Source of the DNA: an uncultured Lachnospiraceae bacterium
Lineage (GTDB): Bacteria > Bacillota > Clostridia > Lachnospirales > Lachnospiraceae
Direction: 5' to 3'
NCBI GenBank assembly: GCA_905234245.1
Contig: CAJOGN010000005.1
Coordinates: forward strand, 411-64,410
Length of the DNA: 64,000 bases
The position numbers and the translations under genes were made by a program. Below, piece by piece: positions 4,687 to 55,400 of this stretch; the stretch's first letter is position 1; each line of letters opens with the position of its first letter. The notes under the pieces were generated by a model. It searched no databases. It saw nothing but the letters and a program-made list of their open reading frames with translations, and was not told the origin of the DNA.

Positions 4687-4806
4687 ATGTGCAGGCACTA
4701 TAGCTTACTTATGTATCAACTAACATATACCTTCACGCTCATACAGAAAATCGCTTAGAAGGTATATGTTAGCTGATACGATACTTAGTAGCATTCACCT
4801 GCACAT
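4687..4806. repeat. Conserved-loop hairpin, copy A (apex TCATACAGAAAATC at 4739..4752)
   Basis: ATGTGCAGG pairs with CCTGCACAT and CTAACATATACCTTC pairs with GAAGGTATATGTTAG. These stems flank CGCTCATACAGAAAATCGCTTA. Lies between the permease stop and the SDR start. Confidence 0.75.
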
Positions 4807-14441: not shown

Positions 14442-14505
14442 CTAGGTCATAAAATATCTTCACACTCATACAGAAAATCGTGTTGAAGATATTTTATGCC
14501 CTAGA
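14441..14505. repeat. Conserved-loop hairpin, copy B (apex 14466..14479)
   Basis: TCTAGGTCATAAAATATCTTCA pairs with TGAAGATATTTTATGCCCTAGA. These stems flank CACTCATACAGAAAATCGTG. Confidence 0.75.
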
Positions 14506-22115: not shown

Positions 22116-23404
22116 ATGGGATTAATTAAAGCTGCTATGGGCGCTGCAGGCGGAACTTTGGCAGATCAGTGGAAGGAATTCTTCTATTGTGATGCAATGG
22201 ACAAAGAAGTAATGGTTGTCAAAGGTCAAAAGAGAACTTCTGGCGAAATGACAATATTATTTCTAATGGTTCGGGAATTGCTGTAGCTGACGGTCAATGT
22301 ATGATTATCGTTGAGCAGGGTAAGGTTGTTGAAATCTGTGCTGAGCCTGGTGAATTCACATTTGACTCATCTACAGAGCCTACAATATTCTCAGGAGACC
22401 TTGGCGATAGCATTATTGCCACCTTCCAGGAAATGGGTAAGCGATTCACTTATGGTGGAGACCCCGGCAAAGACCAGAGAATCTATTACTTCAACACCAA
22501 GGAATTAATGGACAACAAATTCGGAACTCCTAACCCGATTCCTTTCAGGGTACTTGATTCTAAAGTCAATCTTGACCTTGACACATCTGTAAGATGTTCC
22601 GGCGTATATTCATACAGAATAGTTGATCCTATTCGTTTCTATACTAATGTATGTGGAAATGTATCTGAAGAATACAGACGTGAAGAGATTGAATCTCAAC
22701 TTAAGACAGAGTTCATCGATGCACTTCAACCAGCATTCGGTGCGCTATCTAACTTAGAGATTAGACCTAATCAGATTGTCTCTCACAACAAGGAATTAAA
22801 GGATGCAGTTAATGAGGCATTAAAGGACGATTGGCTTGAGAAGCGTGGTCTTGAGATTATCAGTATTGCTATTGGTTCTGTATCACTTCCTGATGAAGAT
22901 GCAGAATACATCAAGCAGGCTCAACGTTCTCGTGCATTCTCAGATCCGGGTATGGGCGCAGGTCTAGGTGCTATTGCCGGTGCTGATGCTATGAAGGCAG
23001 CTGCTTCTAATGAAGGTGGTGCCATGAATGGATTTGTTGGAATGGGAATGGCAATGAATGCTAATCAGATGAATACTGCTAATACAGCTAATCTGTATGC
23101 TATGAATCAGCAAAATCAGCAGATGCAACAGCAACAACAGATGCAACAACAAGCTGCTCCTGCTGGAAATGCCTGGACATGTCAATGTGGCACACAGGTT
23201 ACTGGCAACTTCTGCCCTAACTGTGGTTCTAAGAAGCCTGAGCCTCAAGGCGCATGGACTTGTCAATGTGGCACACAGGTTACTGGCAACTTCTGTCCTA
23301 ACTGTGGCTCTAAGAAGCCTGAAGCTTCTACTTCCTGGACTTGCCAATGTGGCACATCCAACACTGGTAAATTCTGTAGCAACTGTGGTTCTCCACGACC
23401 ATAG
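22116..23404 (+). CDS. SPFH-domain protein of the YdjI family (COG4260-like) with a poly-Q linker and three C-terminal zinc ribbons. The frame is interrupted by a 1-nt frameshift near 22246..22248.
   Basis: Frame 1 (22116..22286) reads MGLIKAAMGAAGGTLADQWKEFFYCDAMDKEVMVVKGQKRTSGE. The next frame, open from 22193, continues NDNIISNGSGIAVADGQCMIIVEQGKVVEICAEPGEF... One extra A in GCGAAATG would join the two frames. The C-terminus carries 3x WTCQCGT.VTG.FC.NCGS. Confidence 0.8.
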
Positions 23405-37227: not shown

Positions 37228-37452
37228 GTATATGGTATAGCTTATATATTCACTTCTAATTCTTCGCTAAGTATATGTAAGGAATTGTTATTAGTCTTAA
37301 GTGATATTAACTAAGAACCGCCCATTGATCTGACATCGTGTCAGCAATAGGCTAGTTCCGACATCCTGTCGGAACTTTCTTACCTCGAACAATTCCTAAC
37401 ATATACTAAGCTTGAATTAATGTCGTGAATATATACAGTCTATACCATATAC
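37228..37452. repeat. Very long imperfect inverted repeat (~62-bp arms) with a ~100-bp core carrying twin mini-hairpins, in the lepA/holA divergent intergenic region
   Basis: The arms are GTATATGGTATAGCTTATATATTCAC...GGAATTGTT and AACAATTCC...GTGAATATATACAGTCTATACCATATAC. The core hairpins are CTGACA-tcg-TGTCAG (37330..37344) and GTTCCGACA-tcc-TGTCGGAAC (37355..37375). Confidence 0.65.
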
Positions 37453-40285: not shown

Positions 40286-41871
40286 CTAATATTTATATCC
40301 CGGATTAAGAAGTTCAAGCAGCTTCTCGTCATGCTTATACGTAAGATAAGGCTTTTCATCTAGTATCATGGTTGCACCTGTCTTAACAGTATACGGTTCC
40401 CACTTCTCTACTCCTCTGTATGACGGAACTCCATCTCTTGCAAAGCTGGTCCACAAGCCACTCATAATATTTGTCATCCTCGGATTCTCAGATGTATTCC
40501 TGAATACATAAGGTATCTCCGAATTGTGTGCGGCTCCGGCATCAGAAGATTGATATGTATACACATAGCCGTATACATCAGCTCCGCCCTGAGCCGCCTT
40601 ATGCTTCATCAGCTTCAAAGTAGGCTGTCTTACAATAATATCTGTATTCTCTGCAATACCTTCATCCTCATTAACATATGCTTTACCGAATTCCTTCTCT
40701 ACCTTGCTTCATGAGTCTGCCCACCATATGTCGCCCATTCTTCGAGATTACTCCCTATAAGAAGAGGTACATCGAAGCTTGCACTGGCAAATGTGTTACC
40801 AGTTATAGGGTTTGTTGGAATGAAATCACCATCTACAACAGGCTGCCATTCTAAGGCATATCCCTCCCCAACTTCTATGGGAATCTTGAACTTTATAGCG
40901 GTATCAGATAAAGCTTTCACCGATGCTTCCTGTAATTCATAATTATCTACAGATTGAATATCTTCTATATCGCTTCTCTTGATATTAAGTTCATCCAGCA
41001 ATCTCTCCGTCAGATATTGACTCACTTCTTTTTCGGTAAAAACCGCTCCCTGAACATCAGATGCTCCTGACTCTACGATAGCTTTATCATATAGTCCCGT
41101 TGCATATGGAGAAGTCATGAGTGCAAGCACCTTGCCACCGCCTCCCGATTGGCCGAATATCGTGATATTGTTCGGATCGCCTCCAAAGCTTGCTGCGTTG
41201 CTTCTAACCCAGTCAAGGGCATCTATGAGATCATATATACCTACATTGGCAGAGTATTTATACTTGTCCCCATAATCGGACAGGTCTAAGAATCCATATA
41301 CATTTAATCTATGGTTGACTGTAATGACTACAACATCCTCATCCTTTGCAAGGTTATGTCCGTCATATTCTTCATCATTTCCCGAGCCTATAGAAAAGCC
41401 TCCTCCATGAAACCATACCATAACAGGTCTGTTACCGCCATCTCCTATGGCAGGTGTCCACAGGTTGAGATTAAGGCAATCATTATCTCCAGTATCAAAC
41501 AAATCCGGCTCTCCACCGAAGATTGCTCCTTGTGGAGAAGTATCTCCATACTCTACAGTATCCTTTACACCTTGCCAAAAATCCGGCTTCTCTGCTGGAA
41601 CAAATCTCTCCGTAGCTTTGGCATAATTGATACCAAGGTAAGTATATACATCATCATTTATCGAACCTCTGACACTTCCGTATGATGTATTAACAATTGC
41701 CTTGTTATTAGGCAATCCTGTTCTGTCCATAGTCAACCATAGGAATAATGCTGCAGCACCAGTGGCAACTGTCAGCGTTAACAGCGTTTTTCCTATGACT
41801 TTTAATATTCTTTTATTCTTATTTTTCTTTTTCTGCCCTTGTTTTGTGTTTGTAGCCATCTGTCCCAACAC
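40286..41871 (-). pseudogene. Carboxylesterase type B (secreted/membrane-anchored), split by a 1-nt frameshift at about 40702..40708
   Basis: The N-terminal ORF (40699..41871) has VMVWFHGGGF and FGQSGGG (nucleophile elbow). The C-terminal frame is open from 40708 and continues KVEKEFGKAY...YVFRN... Restoring one A in GCAAGG would fuse the two frames. Confidence 0.8.
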
Positions 41872-44537
41872 TATTCTACACGTTCAAGTCTGATTCCTTC
41901 CATACCGGCTTCATTCATGATATCGCGCATTGCCTTGGCATACATATCGCCATGAAAGCCCTGATACCAATTGATATAGAAATAGTCTCCAACTTCTGTC
42001 ACCTGTAGCATAATTCCTTTTTCCTGCATAGCATGGAATGCGCTCATTTTGATACGATTGCCGTAAGATGCTGTCCGAAGAGTTCCAAGGTAACTTACTG
42101 CACAGTTAAGTGAAACCTTAGATCTCTGCTCTAGTATAACACTATCAAGTGCTCCTGAAGCGTACGCCTTCTTATAGCCTTCACATATACCGCGATAGAT
42201 TCCACACATATTCTTAATATTCTGTTCTGAAGCAAAACCTTTAAGGAATGCACGATAAGCCTTATTCAATGCAGCATCATCCTTCTTAAGGTCCTCCACC
42301 TGGAATGTATATGGTGCATGCACAACCTGATGTAACAAAGAAGTCTCATTGCCCATTACCTTACGAACGCTAATCGGAGACATAACACGAATGGGAAGTT
42401 CATTCTCCGGATGCACACGCTCCATAGCCCTGGCAAAGAATACATTAAGCATTGACATAGGACTTGCTCCCACGCTCTTAGCATATGACATAAATTCATC
42501 ACTTGGAGCACTGATACAATAACCGCGACAATCCTCTCTAGTAAGGAATAATTCTTCTCTCACTCCTTCAATTGGAATAAATATTGCATTATCGCCAAAT
42601 CCCTGAGCCATAGCAGAAGGGTCTACTGCATCCACCTTAAGATATGCATCTACATCCTGACCTTCCACTACCCCTTCTGTATATACTCCATCCGGCACTT
42701 CGTATGTCTTACCATCAATAATAGAATAGTAATGATAGAAGAATGTCTCAAGCACAGCCTTGAATCCTGTTCCGTCAAGTGGCACATTGTCTGCATAAAT
42801 CCATAGCACATTATCAAGATAACAGAATGTAACTGTATGGAAATTACCGCTTCTTCCATAGGGTTCTATAACTTCGCTGGTCTCTTCAATAATAAACGGC
42901 AGAGGATTCTCTATAAGAACCAGTTCTCCTTCTCTGATTCCAACTCCATATCCCATATAAGGATAGACAGATAATGTCTTATCCCACGCTTTACTAATAG
43001 CATCTGCGTTAACAGCATCGCTTAAGTCGAACCTATATGTCATATAGAATGCTTTATCTGTAGGATATACGCCTCTTGCGAACATTCCGGCGGTTATTGG
43101 GCGCACCATCTTCCATTCTTCTGTAATAGGGTCCCCTTCTCTTGCAACAAAAAGCTTCCTCTCACGATTGAATTTACCCTTTTTAAGCGACCTTACGGTA
43201 TACCAACCATTGCATTGACCTGAACAAAGAAAAGAATCACATCTTGCAAGCATATATAGAGCATAGAAGTAATTAACGGTTGTATCTTCAAGGGCATCCT
43301 TTAAAGCCTGTCCGCTTCTCTTCTTCGCCTCATACTCATTTAAAAGAACAGCACCTGCTTTCTTAAGTTCCTTAACACTTGTTCTCTTCTGTGATATAGC
43401 AATAATCTTCTTCGGGAATGCCGCTCTAATCTTCTTAAGGATATCATCATCCTCAGTTGCAAGGAATATCTTGTCGTATCCGTCTTCATCCATCCATTTT
43501 TGAATTACTGTAATCATCTGTTCGGCAGTTGCATGCTTCCTGTCATTCCCAAGCTTAGAGGTTATATAATCCGTTCCTCTTGCAAGGACACCAAGCACCT
43601 TCTTCCCACCGATTATTGCATCAGCATAATGCTTCAGATCAGAGGCAAATTTCTCGTTAAATATGCTTTCATCAAAGGTGGCAGGAAACTGACAGCCATA
43701 CCATGTGGTGACAAAAATCGACAACTCATGAATAAAGATTGTATTATCTTCAGTCGCATCCTCCGGCTTTGGATTAATCTTAAAATATCTGCTCAAAAGT
43801 TCCTGGGAATATCTTGTACAGTCAGGTTTAAGATATGCCATATATCCTTTGGGAGCAACAGCATTGTCTACCATAGACACATTAGATAATATTCCACCGA
43901 TTCCGGTAATTGGAGTTAGTGCAACTTCCACATACTTAAAAGGTCCCTTTTTTCCTTCCATCAAATCCTGCCAGAAGAAAATATTCTGGAAGGCAACAAC
44001 TGAACCCAACCTTGAATAATCGCGTGTAGTATATCCAATGTCATACACGCTGGCAGTAATGCGAAGTGTACTCTTCTCTTTTTCCGCCGTAAGACTATCC
44101 ACCTTGACAAATCTTTTCGATGGCTCTATAAACCACTCGAGCCTCTCGTCAATATAGTTAATAGTAATATCTGTATGTTTTAATATAATGTTCGCAAGAA
44201 CAATACTGTATTCATCTGCGACTCCAATCTCTGCCTTGTCAAACTGCTGCAAAAATTCCATACACAAATTGTCAATATCATTCTCATCATAACTAAGATA
44301 CGTAGAAATTATCGCAGCTCCCTTTGTCATCATGTATATCTGCTTTCGGGCAATCTCGTTAAAGAGCATCATATTCTCTGTATATTCTAAGTCATAATCA
44401 GGAACCTTACCTTCTTCATCCGTAACATGAACGCGAGTCTCTCCGTCAAGAACCAATTCCAAAGCTTTATGGAATACATTCGCTCCATGCTTGAGAGTTA
44501 CCAAATCTTCGTCATTTCTTTCAACAATATTAAGCAT
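41871..44537 (-). CDS. Large hypothetical cytoplasmic protein (888 aa), function unknown
   Basis: Long uninterrupted ORF whose stop overlaps the esterase start. Weak resemblance only: the middle (GVLARGTDY...IFLATEDDDI...) to fucosyltransferase/NodZ-like folds, and the C-terminal third (ADNVPLDGTGF) to a degenerate HHxxxDG acyltransferase/condensation motif. Confidence 0.6.
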   Translation of the reverse strand: MLNIVERNDEDLVTLKHGANVFHKALELVLDGETRVHVTDEEGKVPDYDLEYTENMMLFNEIARKQIYMMTKGAAIISTYLSYDENDIDNLCMEFLQQFDKAEIGVADEYSIVLANIILKHTDITINYIDERLEWFIEPSKRFVKVDSLTAEKEKSTLRITASVYDIGYTTRDYSRLGSVVAFQNIFFWQDLMEGKKGPFKYVEVALTPITGIGGILSNVSMVDNAVAPKGYMAYLKPDCTRYSQELLSRYFKINPKPEDATEDNTIFIHELSIFVTTWYGCQFPATFDESIFNEKFASDLKHYADAIIGGKKVLGVLARGTDYITSKLGNDRKHATAEQMITVIQKWMDEDGYDKIFLATEDDDILKKIRAAFPKKIIAISQKRTSVKELKKAGAVLLNEYEAKKRSGQALKDALEDTTVNYFYALYMLARCDSFLCSGQCNGWYTVRSLKKGKFNRERKLFVAREGDPITEEWKMVRPITAGMFARGVYPTDKAFYMTYRFDLSDAVNADAISKAWDKTLSVYPYMGYGVGIREGELVLIENPLPFIIEETSEVIEPYGRSGNFHTVTFCYLDNVLWIYADNVPLDGTGFKAVLETFFYHYYSIIDGKTYEVPDGVYTEGVVEGQDVDAYLKVDAVDPSAMAQGFGDNAIFIPIEGVREELFLTREDCRGYCISAPSDEFMSYAKSVGASPMSMLNVFFARAMERVHPENELPIRVMSPISVRKVMGNETSLLHQVVHAPYTFQVEDLKKDDAALNKAYRAFLKGFASEQNIKNMCGIYRGICEGYKKAYASGALDSVILEQRSKVSLNCAVSYLGTLRTASYGNRIKMSAFHAMQEKGIMLQVTEVGDYFYINWYQGFHGDMYAKAMRDIMNEAGMEGIRLERVE

Positions 44538-44832: not shown

Positions 44833-44917
44833 ATTGTATTATCCGGCATCTTGTATTATCTGGCGTCTTGTATTATCCGGCGTCTTGCATTATCCGGCAT
44901 CTTGCATTATCCGGCAT
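44833..44917. repeat. Five tandem 17-bp direct repeats (consensus CTTGYATTATCCGGCRT)
   Basis: Units start at 44833, 44850, 44867, 44884 and 44901, read directly. Confidence 0.9.
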
Positions 44918-44976
44918 CTAGGATTAAAGTCGGCGTAATTCCTTCTCTGGCTAATATTTAATCCCAAACAATTATT

Positions 44977-45103
44977 TTGTTAGCTGTAAACGCATTCCTT
45001 GTTCATTTGTACTGCATGTGCGGCTAACAAAAAGTTTGTCGAACATCATTTGTTAGCCACATTCTGCATAATATCGTATGATTGCTGTGTATTAAGCTAA
45101 CAA
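44977..45103. repeat. Two 54-bp units bounded by TTGTTAGCY ... RGCTAACAA, on the 3' side of the nuclease-like ORF
   Basis: Unit 1 runs from TTGTTAGCT (44977) to GGCTAACAA (45022..45030). Unit 2 runs from TTGTTAGCC (45050) to AGCTAACAA (45095..45103). Period 73 bp. Confidence 0.85.
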
Positions 45104-45151
45104 CATAAAGAAAACATCAACACTATTAGCCATCACCCTATCTTCCTAGAT

Positions 45152-45964
45152 TTACTTACGAAGGCTCATCTTACTAATCATCTCTCTAAGGCATCTTGTA
45201 TTAATTGGATACTTGGATGTCTCAAATGTCCATATCATATTAATCCCCTGATAATACCCATTAGATTCATACTCTCTAATCTTCATAAAAGCATTGTTCC
45301 TATATTCAATGTCATCCATCATACCGAAGTGCTCCCACAGTATTTCTTGTCTTGTTTTTACATTAAGAAGCGTAAAATCAGGATGCACAATTTTTCCTTT
45401 TGAAAACTTAATAGGCTTCTCATATAAATAGGGTATTTCAAATTCATCCAAAGTATCAGCAATAATAATCTCAGATTTTGATCTTACCCTAATGCCACTC
45501 CTTGTGTAATATTCTGTAGCATTTTCTCTGAATTCAAGCTTATCATAATCTTGAGACAACCAGCTACATATATACTCCTCATCAGATACGTATGGAATTG
45601 TTAGTAATTCCCGTTTTAGCTCAGACATCTTGTACACTGCGTTTATATATGGATTAGCATCAGGAATACTGTGTAAGCCTTTCAGCTCATCTATTTCTTC
45701 TGACAGTAATGCAATCAACTTTTCGCTATACTCAACTTGCACCAGCAACTCGGCAAAAGATCTGTCTTTCTTTTTAATATATGTTCCATTTCTCTCTTTC
45801 GAATTTCGTCTAACAAAAAACTGATTGGAGCCACTATGTCTGGTTGCACGAAGAGAGCAACCCTTTGGAACTTTAGTCTTTAGTTGTACAAGTTTGTTTT
45901 TTGTTTCTTGCATAATATATTCTAGTTCTACTATTTCTTTATTAATTGTATCTTTATTAATCAT
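45152..45964 (-). CDS. Hypothetical protein with an N-terminal coiled-coil-like region and a C-terminal PD-(D/E)xK-like (TnsA/Vsr-style) nuclease motif pattern
   Basis: 270 aa with a GAGGAA RBS. The C-terminal half reads VRSKSE(165)IIIADTL..IPYLYEKPI..GKIVHPD(196)FTLLN...EILWE(211)HFG. This is an acidic/PD/acidic arrangement, assigned by eye only. Confidence 0.5.
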   Translation of the reverse strand: MINKDTINKEIVELEYIMQETKNKLVQLKTKVPKGCSLRATRHSGSNQFFVRRNSKERNGTYIKKKDRSFAELLVQVEYSEKLIALLSEEIDELKGLHSIPDANPYINAVYKMSELKRELLTIPYVSDEEYICSWLSQDYDKLEFRENATEYYTRSGIRVRSKSEIIIADTLDEFEIPYLYEKPIKFSKGKIVHPDFTLLNVKTRQEILWEHFGMMDDIEYRNNAFMKIREYESNGYYQGINMIWTFETSKYPINTRCLREMISKMSLRK

Positions 45965-45999
45965 AATTCTTTTCCTCTTCTTATTGTTTGTGTGTGTAA

Positions 46000-46379
46000 T
46001 TGTTAGCCGTAATTATTAATTCGGCTCTTACTTTGCACTTCACCAGCTAACAACACCCCTACTACACTTCACTAGTTGTTAGCCACAACAGCAGGTTCAA
46101 CTCTTGCATCGCACTTCATCGGCTAAAAGTTTCTTCTCCCTTGCCGGTGTTGTTAGCCACAACAGTAGCTTCACCTCTTGTGTTGCACTTCATCGGCTAA
46201 CAACTTCTTCTCCCTTGCCGGTGTTGTTAGCCGTAACAGTAGCTTCACCTCTTGTATCGCGCTTCGCCGGCTAACAACTCCTGCATCTCCGCCCGAGTTG
46301 TTAGCCACAACTCAACAAAATTATCTCTTTCTCGCCTTATCGGCTAACAATTCATATACCAAGGCTCGAATTGTTAGCC
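46000..46379. repeat. Array of five and a half ~74-bp tandem units, each a 54-bp segment bounded by TTGTTAGCC ... GGCTAACAA, on the 5' side of the nuclease-like ORF
   Basis: Forward 9-mers start at 46000, 46076, 46150, 46224, 46298 and 46371. Reverse 9-mers start at 46045, 46121 (degenerate GGCTAAAAG), 46195, 46269 and 46342. The last forward copy overlaps the comEC stop codon. Confidence 0.9.
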
Positions 46380-49154
46380 AAAATCAAGAAATACCTCTAC
46401 TTTGACGCTTTTGTCATCAAGATTCACTTTCAGTCTTCCACAATCTTGTGTACACATATGCGGAATGCCCAAGTCATCTAGTCGCGAAACAACTTCCTTA
46501 GATGGATGGTGGTAACGATTATTAACTCCAGCAGAGATTATTGACATCTTAGGCGATAGAAGTTGCAGAAACTCTTCGCTTGACGAACTCTTAGATCCAT
46601 GATGTGACACTTTAAGTATATCTACACCTGATAGCATATCTCTTAAATCACCATAAGAATACTCAGACTTATCTCCTGTCTCTTCTGACGCATCACTAAG
46701 AAGACATTTCTCGGAATCGACAGTCATGTCGCCTCCAATAAAGAATCTGATATCACTATCATCTTCCTCATATTCTCCTAGGATTGCCAGGGAATTACCA
46801 TTAATATCATCAATCTCATCTGAACCAGCAAACACACATGCAAACTTAAGATTATCTTCAGATACAACATCTCCTTTATCCATCACAATAATTTCTATGC
46901 CTTGTTCATTAGCACGTGTCTCAATATCCTGATAATTCTCCTCACCTAACATGTATTTATCAACCACAATTTTATCGATTGAATATCCACTATCAAGAAC
47001 GTCAAGCAAACCACTTATATGGTCACTGTCTACATGTGATACGAACCAATAATCAATATGACTTATGCCTTTGTATTTTAGGAATGGAAGAATCCTGTAT
47101 GTGCCAACGTTCTTAATATCCGTACTGCCCCCATCAAAGAAATAATTATTATCTCCTGCAACAAGAATTCCGTCTCCTTGTCCTACGTCAATCATATCCA
47201 TTTCAAAATCGTCACAATTATAATTATGAGTTATAAAAATTACGCAAGCTGAGAGCACTGCTAAACATAGTATTAAGTATCTCTTATCCCCAATCAATCT
47301 ATACTTCCAATTGTTCTTTGTACTCTTAGTGCTAAATCCTTCCTTCGTATTCACAAATTCATATTCTAAATACTTCTTGAATATACTCTTGTCATTACCG
47401 TTGCGTAATTGCATTTCTTTTTCTTCAAATACCTTCTCTATATCTTCATACTTATATAGCAAAAACCTCGTAACAAAGAAAAGCACAAGATAGTATACTA
47501 TTACCTTAATTACATTAGGTGAACCTGTGACAATACGAGCCATTGGAAGTTGCAGAGAAAAATATGCTAGCATCTCGTACAAATATACAATTATATGAGC
47601 GCCCCACAACAGAATACTTCCTATAAAATCAAATAATGTTCCTATAATAAACACTCCAAATAGCGCAGCGCCTATAACAACCGTCACTCCACCTATTAGA
47701 GAAATTCCAAGCAATGCTCCTAGAAGTGGTATCACAAGGCAGTTGAGTATAACAACATAAGTTGGTATCTCATAGTAAAATGTGCACACGATAGGAAGTG
47801 TCACCAGTTGTATTAAAATGCCACTTAACAGAGCCTTACAAACTCTTTCCTTAATACTTGGTTTATATCCACTTATCTTAAAAGTGCCAGCCTTAGATTC
47901 ACTAGCCTTATAATCGCCGGACTTAGATTCACTAGCCTTATAGTCGCCAACATTGGTTTCACTAGCCTTATAGTCATCAGCCTTAAATCCACTAATAAAG
48001 CGTGACATAAATGCACTATTAGCAAGTACTCCCACCCTATTAACACGATTACTTCCATCATATACAAACCTAACCCTGCAGAACCTGTCATACATCGCCA
48101 CTAAAGGATTAACCACAACAGCAATCCCCGTCACGGCACCAAATGAGAAAATAAATCCTACAGAATCAACACTATAAGGATACACTAGCAACACATATAT
48201 CATCGCAGTTCCAATGGCCGACAGAGAATCATACCCTTCCCCTAAAATATCAGCAAGTATCATAACAAGGAACATTACCACAGCTCTAATTGTGGACACA
48301 CCTCCAAAGGTAAGCATCCCATAAAGAACTACAATAACAGAAGATATCACACCTGCAACTCCGAAGGGCGTACCTCTTCTGCGCATCATACGGTAAATGC
48401 TCATTCCAACAATAGAGATGTGAAGTCCTGATATCGCCAGAATATGTGCAAGACCTGACAGCTTGAATAAATCCTTTACCTCAGCATCAAGTTCAGACTT
48501 ATCTCCCAAAGTCATGGCAGATACTATTCCCCCTTCCTCTCCAGGAAGATTAGAGATAAAGGCCTGCTTAACATTTTCCCTGAGGCAATACAATAACTCG
48601 CCTACACCAACTAGAGGTTCTTCCACAACTTCTGCAGTTCCCTTAACCTTCATAAGTGTTCCGACAGAATTATAATAAGACTGCTCGTCAAAATTCCCCT
48701 CGTTACGAGCGACATTCCATTTTTCTTTTTTTCCTTCTACTATAGCAGTAGCACCAATTGGTAAATCATCTGAATCAGATTGTAATATTATGGTCTCACT
48801 AGAATCTAAGACCATATCTTCATTGATAATACTATTGAAATATAGATAATAAGAAGTGGTTTTTTTCTCTATCTTAGCTAACTCGCCTTGAAATCTTACT
48901 ACTTGCCCTTCTTCAATTCGATCATAATAATCTCTATCTCTTAGATAATGATTATATCTAATGCTCCCTATTAGGAAGCTTGATATGAAAACCAACAGAC
49001 TAAGAATTATATATATAACCCTTAGCCTATTGTTAATCTCATATATTATTAGTCCTATAAGAAATGTAATTCCAACAACAATAATTATAGGACCGCTAAA
49101 ATTATCATTAATAAAAAGGCAACCTAGCAACATTTCTATAGCAAGAGCAAACAA
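46374..49154 (-). CDS. comEC: DNA internalization competence protein ComEC/Rec2 (competence domain plus C-terminal metallo-beta-lactamase domain)
   Basis: Multi-TM competence region (..LSGLAHILAISGLHISIV..). The C-terminus has DVGQGDG, HVDSDHISG and SHHGS, which are MBL motifs. Confidence 0.9.
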   Translation of the reverse strand: MFALAIEMLLGCLFINDNFSGPIIIVVGITFLIGLIIYEINNRLRVIYIILSLLVFISSFLIGSIRYNHYLRDRDYYDRIEEGQVVRFQGELAKIEKKTTSYYLYFNSIINEDMVLDSSETIILQSDSDDLPIGATAIVEGKKEKWNVARNEGNFDEQSYYNSVGTLMKVKGTAEVVEEPLVGVGELLYCLRENVKQAFISNLPGEEGGIVSAMTLGDKSELDAEVKDLFKLSGLAHILAISGLHISIVGMSIYRMMRRRGTPFGVAGVISSVIVVLYGMLTFGGVSTIRAVVMFLVMILADILGEGYDSLSAIGTAMIYVLLVYPYSVDSVGFIFSFGAVTGIAVVVNPLVAMYDRFCRVRFVYDGSNRVNRVGVLANSAFMSRFISGFKADDYKASETNVGDYKASESKSGDYKASESKAGTFKISGYKPSIKERVCKALLSGILIQLVTLPIVCTFYYEIPTYVVILNCLVIPLLGALLGISLIGGVTVVIGAALFGVFIIGTLFDFIGSILLWGAHIIVYLYEMLAYFSLQLPMARIVTGSPNVIKVIVYYLVLFFVTRFLLYKYEDIEKVFEEKEMQLRNGNDKSIFKKYLEYEFVNTKEGFSTKSTKNNWKYRLIGDKRYLILCLAVLSACVIFITHNYNCDDFEMDMIDVGQGDGILVAGDNNYFFDGGSTDIKNVGTYRILPFLKYKGISHIDYWFVSHVDSDHISGLLDVLDSGYSIDKIVVDKYMLGEENYQDIETRANEQGIEIIVMDKGDVVSEDNLKFACVFAGSDEIDDINGNSLAILGEYEEDDSDIRFFIGGDMTVDSEKCLLSDASEETGDKSEYSYGDLRDMLSGVDILKVSHHGSKSSSSEEFLQLLSPKMSIISAGVNNRYHHPSKEVVSRLDDLGIPHMCTQDCGRLKVNLDDKSVKVEVFLDFG

Positions 49155-55340: not shown

Positions 55341-55400
55341 ATATAAATAACAGAAACCTGCATACAGAAAATCGGCATGTCAGGTTTCTGTTATTTATAT
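55341..55400. repeat. Conserved-loop hairpin, copy D (apex CATACAGAAAATCG at 55361..55374). Likely a bidirectional terminator between htpG and the HD-GYP gene.
   Basis: The 20-bp perfect stem ATATAAATAACAGAAACCTG / CAGGTTTCTGTTATTTATAT encloses CATACAGAAAATCGGCATGT. Confidence 0.75.

Follow-up and report, generated by a model that had tools for sequence, protein, structure and literature searches.

A PD-(D/E)xK-fold protein gene accompanied by helically spaced palindrome arrays at a comEC-linked locus of Lachnospiraceae

A 64,000-nucleotide stretch of DNA from an uncultured rumen Lachnospiraceae bacterium (GenBank assembly GCA_905234245.1, contig CAJOGN010000005.1, positions 411 to 64,410 of the forward strand; hereafter 'the window') contains, at 44977-46379 and immediately downstream of comEC, a lone open reading frame (ORF) for a 270-aa protein set in a series of short, regularly spaced inverted repeats, and the question raised by this locus is what kind of element a nuclease-like gene with such surroundings represents. 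A first description made from the letters alone (the 'sequence-only reading') had held that no described element fits, which agreed with the outcome of searches in Pfam, NCBIfam, PHROGs, Rfam, PDB sequences and the literature. The interpretation favoured here, with roughly even confidence, is a two-part chromosomal module consisting of a sequence-specific PD-(D/E)xK nuclease and a helically phased array of duplex DNA on which that nuclease docks. It is based on an architecture in which palindrome-ended sites of ~36 bp lie beside a nuclease gene and are repeated at a whole number of helical turns.

Palindromic sites in the window and across the family

The 9-mer TTGTTAGCC (at most one mismatch) started at positions 44977, 45050, 46000, 46076, 46150, 46224, 46298 and 46371, and its complement at 45022, 45095, 46045, 46195, 46269 and 46342, with a degenerate complement copy, GGCTAAAAG, at 46121; all of these sites had been listed by the sequence-only reading, and all were present. 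Counting both strands with at most one mismatch, the window contained 28 matches against 13.2 +/- 3.6 expected, a number reached in none of 100 shuffles. Fifteen of the 28 were located within 44977-46379 (one of them, at 45808, inside the 270-aa ORF), while the 13 outside equalled the chance expectation, so that the proposed local enrichment was confirmed; no further palindromes of the array type were found elsewhere in the window. Tandem Repeats Finder (TRF) reported a repeat at 46075-46311 with a period of 74 bp and 3.2 copies, and the start-to-start spacing of the sites was 73-76 bp, or ~7 helical turns, which places all sites in the window on one side of the helix.

The sites had originally been paired into units of 53-54 bp, a register that was not upheld: the pair conserved in the family is GGCTAACAA-N20-TTGTTAGCC, and the short pair was adopted as the register because its outer span of 35-39 bp is constant across the family. 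In this register, the site at 46371, previously regarded as unpaired, finds a partner, and the lone half-site is instead the one next to the ORF start, where the ribosome-binding site and start codon occupy the place of the partner arm. Upstream of the ORF there are 5.5 units, and further units follow on its 3' side, where three sites (two of them degenerate) rather than the two reported earlier were recognised (Table 1). The upstream and downstream arrays had their arms in common, and their interiors could not be aligned. As had been noted, the array begins on the comEC stop codon (46374-46376), which falls within its outermost 9-mer. Neither a sigma-70-like promoter nor an intrinsic terminator was predicted between comEC and the 270-aa ORF.

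Related arrays were sought at 81 loci, over which the locus counts below were taken. A period-matched tandem array was detected by TRF at most 700 bp from the gene in 55 of the 81 loci (49 upstream, 13 downstream), and a k-mer test revealed at least three inverted pairs with the same arms upstream of the gene in 45 of the 75 loci with upstream sequence, control regions giving mostly one or two. Homologs thus co-occur with arrays that bear arms of their own, a point on which the sequence-only reading had proposed to be checked. The arms varied by lineage (GCTAACA, GCGAACA, GCAACA, GCAATGA, GCTATAA, GCTGTAA and others), and the outer span of the palindrome remained 35-39 bp (~36) whatever the arm length, followed by a linker of 34-38 bp. 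Units of one array were 70-95% identical to each other; the arms reached a within-array identity of 0.97 and the two interior segments 0.835 and 0.83, the arms being the best-conserved part in 32 of 35 arrays, in line with the earlier statement that interiors drift while termini stay invariant. A CRISPR-like layout of repeats and spacers is ruled out by the same figures, since both interiors are ~83% identical where the arms reach 97%. The view that the arms are under selection as half-sites is supported by their being near-invariant within arrays, strictly palindromic and lineage-specific. In homologs of 36-40% identity the palindrome (35-38 bp) was kept and the linker was shorter, and one distant family member had palindrome pairs of span 37 at a step of 63 bp.

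Unit lengths clustered at 51-54, 62-65, 72-76 and 83-84 bp, with hardly any in between, that is, near multiples of 10.5 bp. Arrays of mixed unit length followed the same steps (73 with 84 bp in L051; 73+63+63 bp in L067, forming a 199-bp super-repeat). A super-period of 145-147 bp, due to two alternating unit subtypes, was present in many upstream arrays (L001, L003, L007, L018, L020, L027, L034, L044, L049 and L055). Arrays with identical arms bracketed comEC plus the nuclease gene in L046 (167-341 and 3825-4290), and in L021 (329-671 and 2637-2910) the neighbour of the nuclease ORF, a beta-CASP metallo-beta-lactamase gene. Some arrays were located only downstream of the ORF, or one gene away from it. 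Arrays inverted relative to the ORF all belonged to one paralog lineage, at a locus divergent from mreB; a dependence of array orientation on the strand of the upstream gene was therefore rejected, the inverted arrays representing a single event.

Several independent results point to arrays that would work as duplex DNA rather than as RNA. Among 37 arm types, the five outer positions were Watson-Crick paired in 181 of 185 cells, with all four pair types represented and no G·U, and there was no excess of G·U over all units either (29 G·U, 38 A·C). Several arrays had conserved mismatches without compensation, the predicted folding energy of one array was zero (no predicted fold), and in some families arms of 5-6 bp closed 23-26 nt, too weak a stem for an RNA hairpin to form independently. 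In Fourier spectra of AA/TT dinucleotides, harmonic 7 (10.4-10.6 bp) was the strongest in 31 of 53 arrays, the chance for each array being ~1/36; in a mixed 73/84 array the peak was at exactly 10.5 bp, and the closest relative of the window's array showed the periodicity as well. The A-tracts phased at ~10.5 bp through the units of most relatives suggest curved or wrapped DNA. The phasing over ~7 turns claimed for the window was thus borne out by the spacing of its sites, and in the family by unit lengths near multiples of 10.5 bp and by the AA/TT periodicity. No match to Rfam was obtained for the array at gathering or permissive thresholds, and none in 20 related loci. A comparison of sense and antisense folding energies was discarded as a test for RNA, as the better folding of the purine-rich strand (45 of 59 arrays) is an effect of base composition.

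The 270-aa protein and its relatives

An AlphaFold2 model of the 270-aa protein had a predicted local distance difference test score of 90 (88 for residues 1-140 modelled alone). In the model, residues 1-100 form two antiparallel helices of a coiled coil whose tip (residues 37-52) is a conserved basic beta-hairpin, and residues 145-266 form a PD-(D/E)xK nuclease domain. Foldseek matched the C-terminal half to DrdV, Bax1, R2 endonuclease, Card1 and Can2 (probability 0.95-0.99, E only ~7e-3), and to DUF2726, DUF559, TnsA_N and endonuclease I proteins in the BFVD viral library. Residues 145-266 further matched the C-terminus of the 1,221-aa PADLOC candidate PDC-S68 (E=4e-26) and, in tblastn searches, the C-termini of plasmid-encoded 'AAA ATPase / RecD-like helicase' proteins. 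With its alpha/beta core and conserved acidic residues the protein belongs to the PD-(D/E)xK superfamily, so that the nuclease assignment of the sequence-only reading stood, its narrower 'TnsA/Vsr-style' label being valid at the level of the fold only. The canonical lysine of the (D/E)xK motif was not at its usual position; E165, D196, E211, H212 and ~30 other positions were invariant in the family, and it is on account of this invariance that the protein is expected to be an active nuclease.

The full-length protein gave no match in Pfam, NCBIfam, PHROGs or a PDB sequence search, nor did any of 36 relatives, each scanned individually, match Pfam; the Pfam domains of the competence nuclease CoiA were not matched at E values up to 1. 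An AP2 or integrase arm-binding fold was considered for the N-terminus and dropped, because residues 1-140 retrieved only coiled-coil look-alikes (prefoldin, V-ATPase stalk and Rad50 hook, all at E>0.1).

A search of 5.8 billion proteins retrieved relatives of the protein in no fewer than 1,666 clusters (90% identity), nearly all of ~270 aa, and those bearing any name were all called 'hypothetical'. A profile of the N-terminal domain alone retrieved 1,865 clusters at 50% identity, almost all of 260-290 aa. The family is accordingly large and of fixed length, without a name and without a Pfam, NCBIfam or Rfam model. Among species genomes of the Genome Taxonomy Database (GTDB), 205 stretches encoded a relative; the best 80 of these all came from Lachnospiraceae-type rumen or gut bacteria, the closest being a Pseudobutyrivibrio. 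There were no relatives in 2.9 million viral contigs and no full-length ones on 72,556 plasmids (tblastn), where only the C-termini of AAA-ATPase/helicase proteins matched, and carriage by phages or plasmids was rejected on these grounds. Three matches labelled 'Bacteriophage sp.' were unverified faecal contigs, one of which was looked into and had no array. Several diverged paralogs (~50% identical, with different arms) can reside in one genome; identical or near-identical copies of the module within a genome did not occur. Literature searches on PDC-S68, or on comEC-linked repeats in Lachnospiraceae or Butyrivibrio, returned nothing relevant.

Chromosomal setting and variation of the module

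A comEC homolog was located directly upstream of the gene and co-oriented with it in 45 of the 81 loci, even where the comEC product was only 24-35% identical. Other recurrent positions were after a beta-CASP metallo-beta-lactamase gene, after an ABC-transporter gene, or facing mreB, and the genes neighbouring the loci included comEC, an esterase and similar genes. The sequence-only reading had seen no transposase, recombinase, Rep, Par or Cas gene, and no transposase, recombinase, partition-type or cas gene was found among the neighbouring genes in the window and at related loci. Among strains in which the protein was at least 90% identical, the number of upstream units was 2, 2, 3, 3, 5.5 (window), 9, 10 or 11, always changing in 73-bp steps, and the downstream sites were constant.

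Comparison of the junction downstream of comEC, as suggested from the sequence, revealed a presence/absence polymorphism. Two metagenomic contigs, L086 and L091, encoded a comEC 82-86% identical to that of the window and had neither the ORF nor the array. Directly after the comEC stop codon they carried a solo palindrome, GGCTATAATTCC-N11-GGAATTATAGCC, with a span of 35 (L086 3105-3146, L091 3108-3146), followed by an extra paralog of the 888-aa gene that replaces the module. The solo palindrome may represent the scar of a deletion, a hairpin of ancestral origin or a target site; the exact indel boundaries of the module are not definable, since these 'empty' relatives have the extra paralog in its place. 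The segment 49519-46435 of the window was 88.7% identical to L091 and 68-74% to L085, the segment 46162-40000 was 87% identical to L085 and 69-75% to L091, and the ORF with everything downstream of it was 87-96% identical to L085 and L001. Because the nearest relative switches between them, the crossover is placed at the end of comEC or within the array (46162-46435). Judged by these identities, the window is a recombination mosaic, its comEC side akin to a lineage lacking the module and its ORF side to L085 and L001. A replication origin or terminus, or an iteron, was rejected as an explanation of the repeats, given the uniformly negative GC skew across the window and the lack of any Rep-like match of the 270-aa protein in profile searches.

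Table 1. Positions of comEC, the 270-aa ORF and the palindromic sites in the window
Feature	Position	Strand	Remarks
comEC	46374..49154	-	926 aa; Pfam Competence, DUF4131, Lactamase_B; directly upstream of the ORF, same strand
Upstream site 1	46342..46379		GGCTAACAA-N20-TTGTTAGCC, 38 bp; overlaps comEC stop codon
Upstream site 2	46269..46306		38 bp
Upstream site 3	46195..46232		38 bp
Upstream site 4	46121..46158		38 bp; one degenerate arm, GGCTAAAAG
Upstream site 5	46045..46084		AGCTAACAA-N22-TTGTTAGCC, 40 bp
Lone half-site	46000..46008		TTGTTAGCC; 35 nt 5' of ORF start codon
270-aa protein	45152..45964	-	Coiled coil with beta-hairpin tip plus PD-(D/E)xK domain (predicted)
Downstream site 1	45095..45131		37 bp, degenerate AGCTAACAA...CTATTAGCC; 21 nt past ORF stop
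Downstream site 2	45022..45058		37 bp, two exact arms
Downstream site 3	44949..44985		37 bp, degenerate GGCTAATAT...TTGTTAGCT

Further features were recorded in and around the locus. A 17-bp unit, TTGTATTATCCGGCATC, was present in five tandem copies (44834-44919) in the interval from the downstream sites to a promoter-like site of the 888-aa gene and occurred as a single copy in the close relatives L001 and L085, making it a second, unrelated copy-number variant at the locus. The 888-aa protein gene itself (41871-44537, minus strand), downstream of the module, had no Pfam match and many metagenomic relatives, and in L086 and L091 was present as two paralogs in tandem. comEC diverged far more than its neighbours between close relatives and contained a coding 15/30-nt tandem repeat (47886-47994) that specifies GDYKASESK-like peptide repeats. 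Elsewhere in the window, three hairpins (4724-4768, 14451-14495 and 55349-55392) with differing stems and a common loop core, CATACAGAAAATCG, looked like a separate dispersed hairpin family of the genome; a TwoAYGGAY RNA (Rfam RF01731) was found at 37256-37421 (minus strand; 82 bits, gathering score 43); and an 81-bp tandem repeat of 2.3-2.7 copies (23171-23392) encoded CxxC-type zinc-ribbon-like peptide units.

Interpretation of the arrays

In the favoured reading, a nuclease docking on a phased array of its own sites, a dimer of the protein would bind to each palindrome, the arms would probably be read by the basic beta-hairpin that tips the coiled coil, and neighbouring dimers would stack along one face of the array. 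The array would thereby park and concentrate the nuclease at its own locus, and would be the likely place of nicking or cutting, which would fit the rapid change in copy number and the recombination junction observed there. In the window the module is probably transcribed together with comEC, so that production of the protein would accompany comEC expression. Protein pairs of 60-85% identity with different arms differed preferentially at residues 37, 41, 51 and 57, in the region of the beta-hairpin, a contrast that is weakly suggestive of arm recognition by the hairpin; mutual information between protein columns and arm positions was dropped, being confounded by shared ancestry. Of the three possibilities originally put forward for the locus, a nucleoprotein array is the one preferred here; a multi-operator autoregulatory region cannot hold in general, given that some arrays are found only downstream of the gene or one gene away from it, and transposon ends are weakly supported (see below).

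A number of observations weigh against the docking-array interpretation. The window's own array lacked AA/TT periodicity (z = 0.7), and some unit lengths, for example 69 and 57 bp, are off the 10.5-bp ladder. A role that depends on tightly tuned stoichiometry is disfavoured by the range of 2 to 11 units among close strains. The N-terminal domain had no significant Foldseek match to a known DNA-binding fold, and the evidence for the putative link between protein and arms is their co-occurrence and co-variation, part of which co-inheritance could explain. Finally, the transcribed strand of most arrays is strongly purine-rich and the majority of arrays are situated just upstream of the gene, both of which an RNA role would predict too. 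The purine bias can be explained by the need of palindromes within operons to avoid terminating transcription, which is simpler and requires no RNA function; 30 of 32 intervals from a co-oriented upstream gene to the ORF were without a hairpin followed by a T-rich tail, and usually without TTTTT.

An RNA explanation would make the array a tandem-repeat transcript, produced with or just before the nuclease mRNA and bound or processed by the protein in the manner of a toxin-antitoxin pair of type III such as ToxIN, the toxin in this case being of the PD-(D/E)xK type. The 49 arrays directly upstream of the gene on the same strand would suit it, as would the purine-rich sense strand of most arrays, their very probable transcription (no terminator before or after them) and a nuclease domain in common with a candidate defence protein (PDC-S68). 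It is nevertheless considered improbable, given stems without G·U excess and with some uncompensated conserved mismatches, short arms closing 23-26-nt loops and a zero-energy array, all unlike structured RNA, units only 70-95% identical, and a ladder of unit lengths and AA/TT periodicity for which RNA offers no rationale; arrays that are downstream only, one gene away or inverted in one paralog lineage do not agree with it either, and the protein had no ToxN/AbiQ-like match, the array no Rfam match, and the family no relatives in the phage set and no full-length ones on plasmids. The arrays as multi-site ends of a nuclease-driven selfish element, whether homing-type or site-specific, targeting the palindrome 3' of comEC, or guarding itself against removal by transformation, are likewise an unlikely explanation. 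Arrays with the same arms bracketing the ORF, sometimes with a neighbouring gene, the relatives with a solo palindrome and no module, the recombination junction at the array, the diverged paralogs sharing a genome and the adjoining competence gene are what such an element might leave. Against this, co-resident paralogs are only ~50% identical and differ in their arms, with no (near-)identical copies in any one genome; orthologous positions are kept across species in which comEC is only 24-35% identical; a target-site duplication could not be defined; neither a transposase, a recombinase nor a TnsB/TnsC partner was found among the neighbours; the viral contigs contained no relative and the plasmids no full-length one; and a homing nuclease normally destroys its target on insertion and does not multiply it.

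More doubtful still is an interpretation as extragenic palindromes of the REP/BIME kind (repetitive extragenic palindromes and bacterial interspersed mosaic elements), host-bound or mRNA-stabilising, which the nuclease would merely spread in the fashion of a REP-associated tyrosine transposase (RAYT). RAYT genes are flanked by REPs, and here ~36-bp palindromes likewise form tandem clusters at gene ends on both sides of the nuclease gene, with a solo palindrome at the 3' end of comEC in L091 and fast changes in copy number. The arms are, however, locus-specific rather than shared genome-wide, they are not dispersed (the outside matches are at chance and no other such palindrome occurs in the 64 kb), and there was no Y1/HUH match or motif. 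Least probable, and already disfavoured, is a neutral minisatellite co-inherited with the gene: it would account for 2 to 11 copies among close strains and is contradicted by the conservation of arms beside diverging interiors, by a constant span and steps of ~10.5 bp in unit length across lineages unrelated in sequence, and by the 10.5-bp AA/TT signal in 31 of 53 arrays.

Among described systems, the nearest architecture is that of sopC of the F plasmid, where SopB binds an inverted repeat in each of 12 tandem direct repeats of 43 bp and assembles a large nucleoprotein complex on them (PMC3177203). The likeness consists of tandem repeats containing an inverted repeat with a length near whole helical turns; the differences are a unit of 73-74 bp, a PD-(D/E)xK nuclease as the presumed binder in place of any ParA/ParB homolog, and a location on the chromosome only, where several diverged copies can coexist. 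The ORF had no match to ParB or any other Pfam family, and no partition-type gene was present among the sequenced neighbours, as would be required for a ParABS system. In gene layout, the closest systems are the type III toxin-antitoxins (ToxIN, CptIN and TenpIN), in which short tandem repeats immediately precede a nuclease gene (PMC3401426) and in which, as here, every protein variant has its own repeat. Upstream tandem repeats were indeed present at most of the loci, yet some arrays were downstream only, the stems showed 0 G·U and the phasing was DNA-like; units are twice as long as in type III systems and diverge within the array, arrays may also be one gene away, and the fold is PD-(D/E)xK rather than ToxN-like, no match to a ToxN, CptN or TenpN (AbiQ-like) toxin having been obtained in Pfam or PADLOC.

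The layout of a nuclease flanked by its own palindromes is nearest to REP/BIME with RAYT (TnpA-REP), with units of ~35 bp on both sides. The enzyme of the present module is, in contrast, not of the HUH/Y1 type (no Y1_Tnp Pfam match in the ORF or 36 relatives), and within the 64 kb, at least, its palindromes show no dispersal. The oriT2 of pAD1 combines an inverted repeat with short repeats at a periodicity of ~11 bp. No Pfam match to MOB_C relaxases, which we take to be represented by Replic_Relax, was found in the ORF or the 36 relatives. TraX of pAD1, a MOB_C relaxase described in PMC6736028 (citing Francia et al. 2013) as a small PD-(D/E)xK-type enzyme that is site-specific on DNA, comes nearest among small PD-(D/E)xK enzymes that act at a structured site; the 270-aa protein differs in having no sequence match to plasmid relaxases, no conjugation genes nearby, and a chromosomal position conserved across genera. 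PDC-S68 and the plasmid AAA ATPase / RecD-like helicase proteins have a C-terminal nuclease domain homologous to residues 145-266, but are ~1,200 aa long with ATPase/helicase modules and have no recorded arrays, and the N-terminal stalk of the 270-aa protein is unrelated to them. CRISPR arrays resemble the locus in a period of ~73 bp and a repeated element with palindromic ends, and differ in their unique spacers and in cas genes, of which there were none in the neighbourhood. Integron attC sites follow the consensus R''=RYYYAAC ... R'=GTTRRRY and measure 57-141 bp; they were rejected because GTTAGCC breaks GTTRRRY, other lineages have TGTTGC or TCATTGC, the span here is ~36 bp, and no integrase is encoded nearby. 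A Tn7-like element was also rejected, with no Tn7_Tnp_TnsA_N Pfam match in the ORF or 36 relatives and no transposase-like neighbour. Since every known system compared fails at least one defining feature, no described system fits, and the module is filed as a kind of its own, with docking as its tentative mechanism.

A bolder and rather unlikely extension of the docking-array reading is that the nuclease, co-expressed with the DNA-uptake channel ComEC, is kept on its own sites in a curved, solenoid-like array, which would constitute a new class of chromosomal system. The array would then be a 'DNA antidote' or docking platform, and the nuclease would have its real targets in matching palindromes elsewhere. 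A first candidate is the solo-palindrome hairpin in incoming single-stranded transforming DNA, the cutting of which would make the module resistant to deletion by transformation; another is invading DNA, attacked after release of the nuclease from the array.

With 1,666 or more clusters at 90% identity, the family is a large one; it occurs in rumen and gut Lachnospiraceae, and neither a name nor a Pfam or NCBIfam model exists for it, nor was literature matching it found. Many of its members are on short contigs or at contig ends, and the arrays therefore probably break assemblies. A link of competence and recombination to a site-specific nuclease can be tested directly, given the recurrent position after comEC, the variation in copy number and the recombination junction at the array. 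Should the protein recognise the array beside its gene, dozens of natural protein/site pairs with shifted specificity would become available for studying the evolution of recognition and, if the docking-array interpretation is true, the module would exemplify, in bacteria, DNA arranged to keep helical phase over distances of up to 1 kb.

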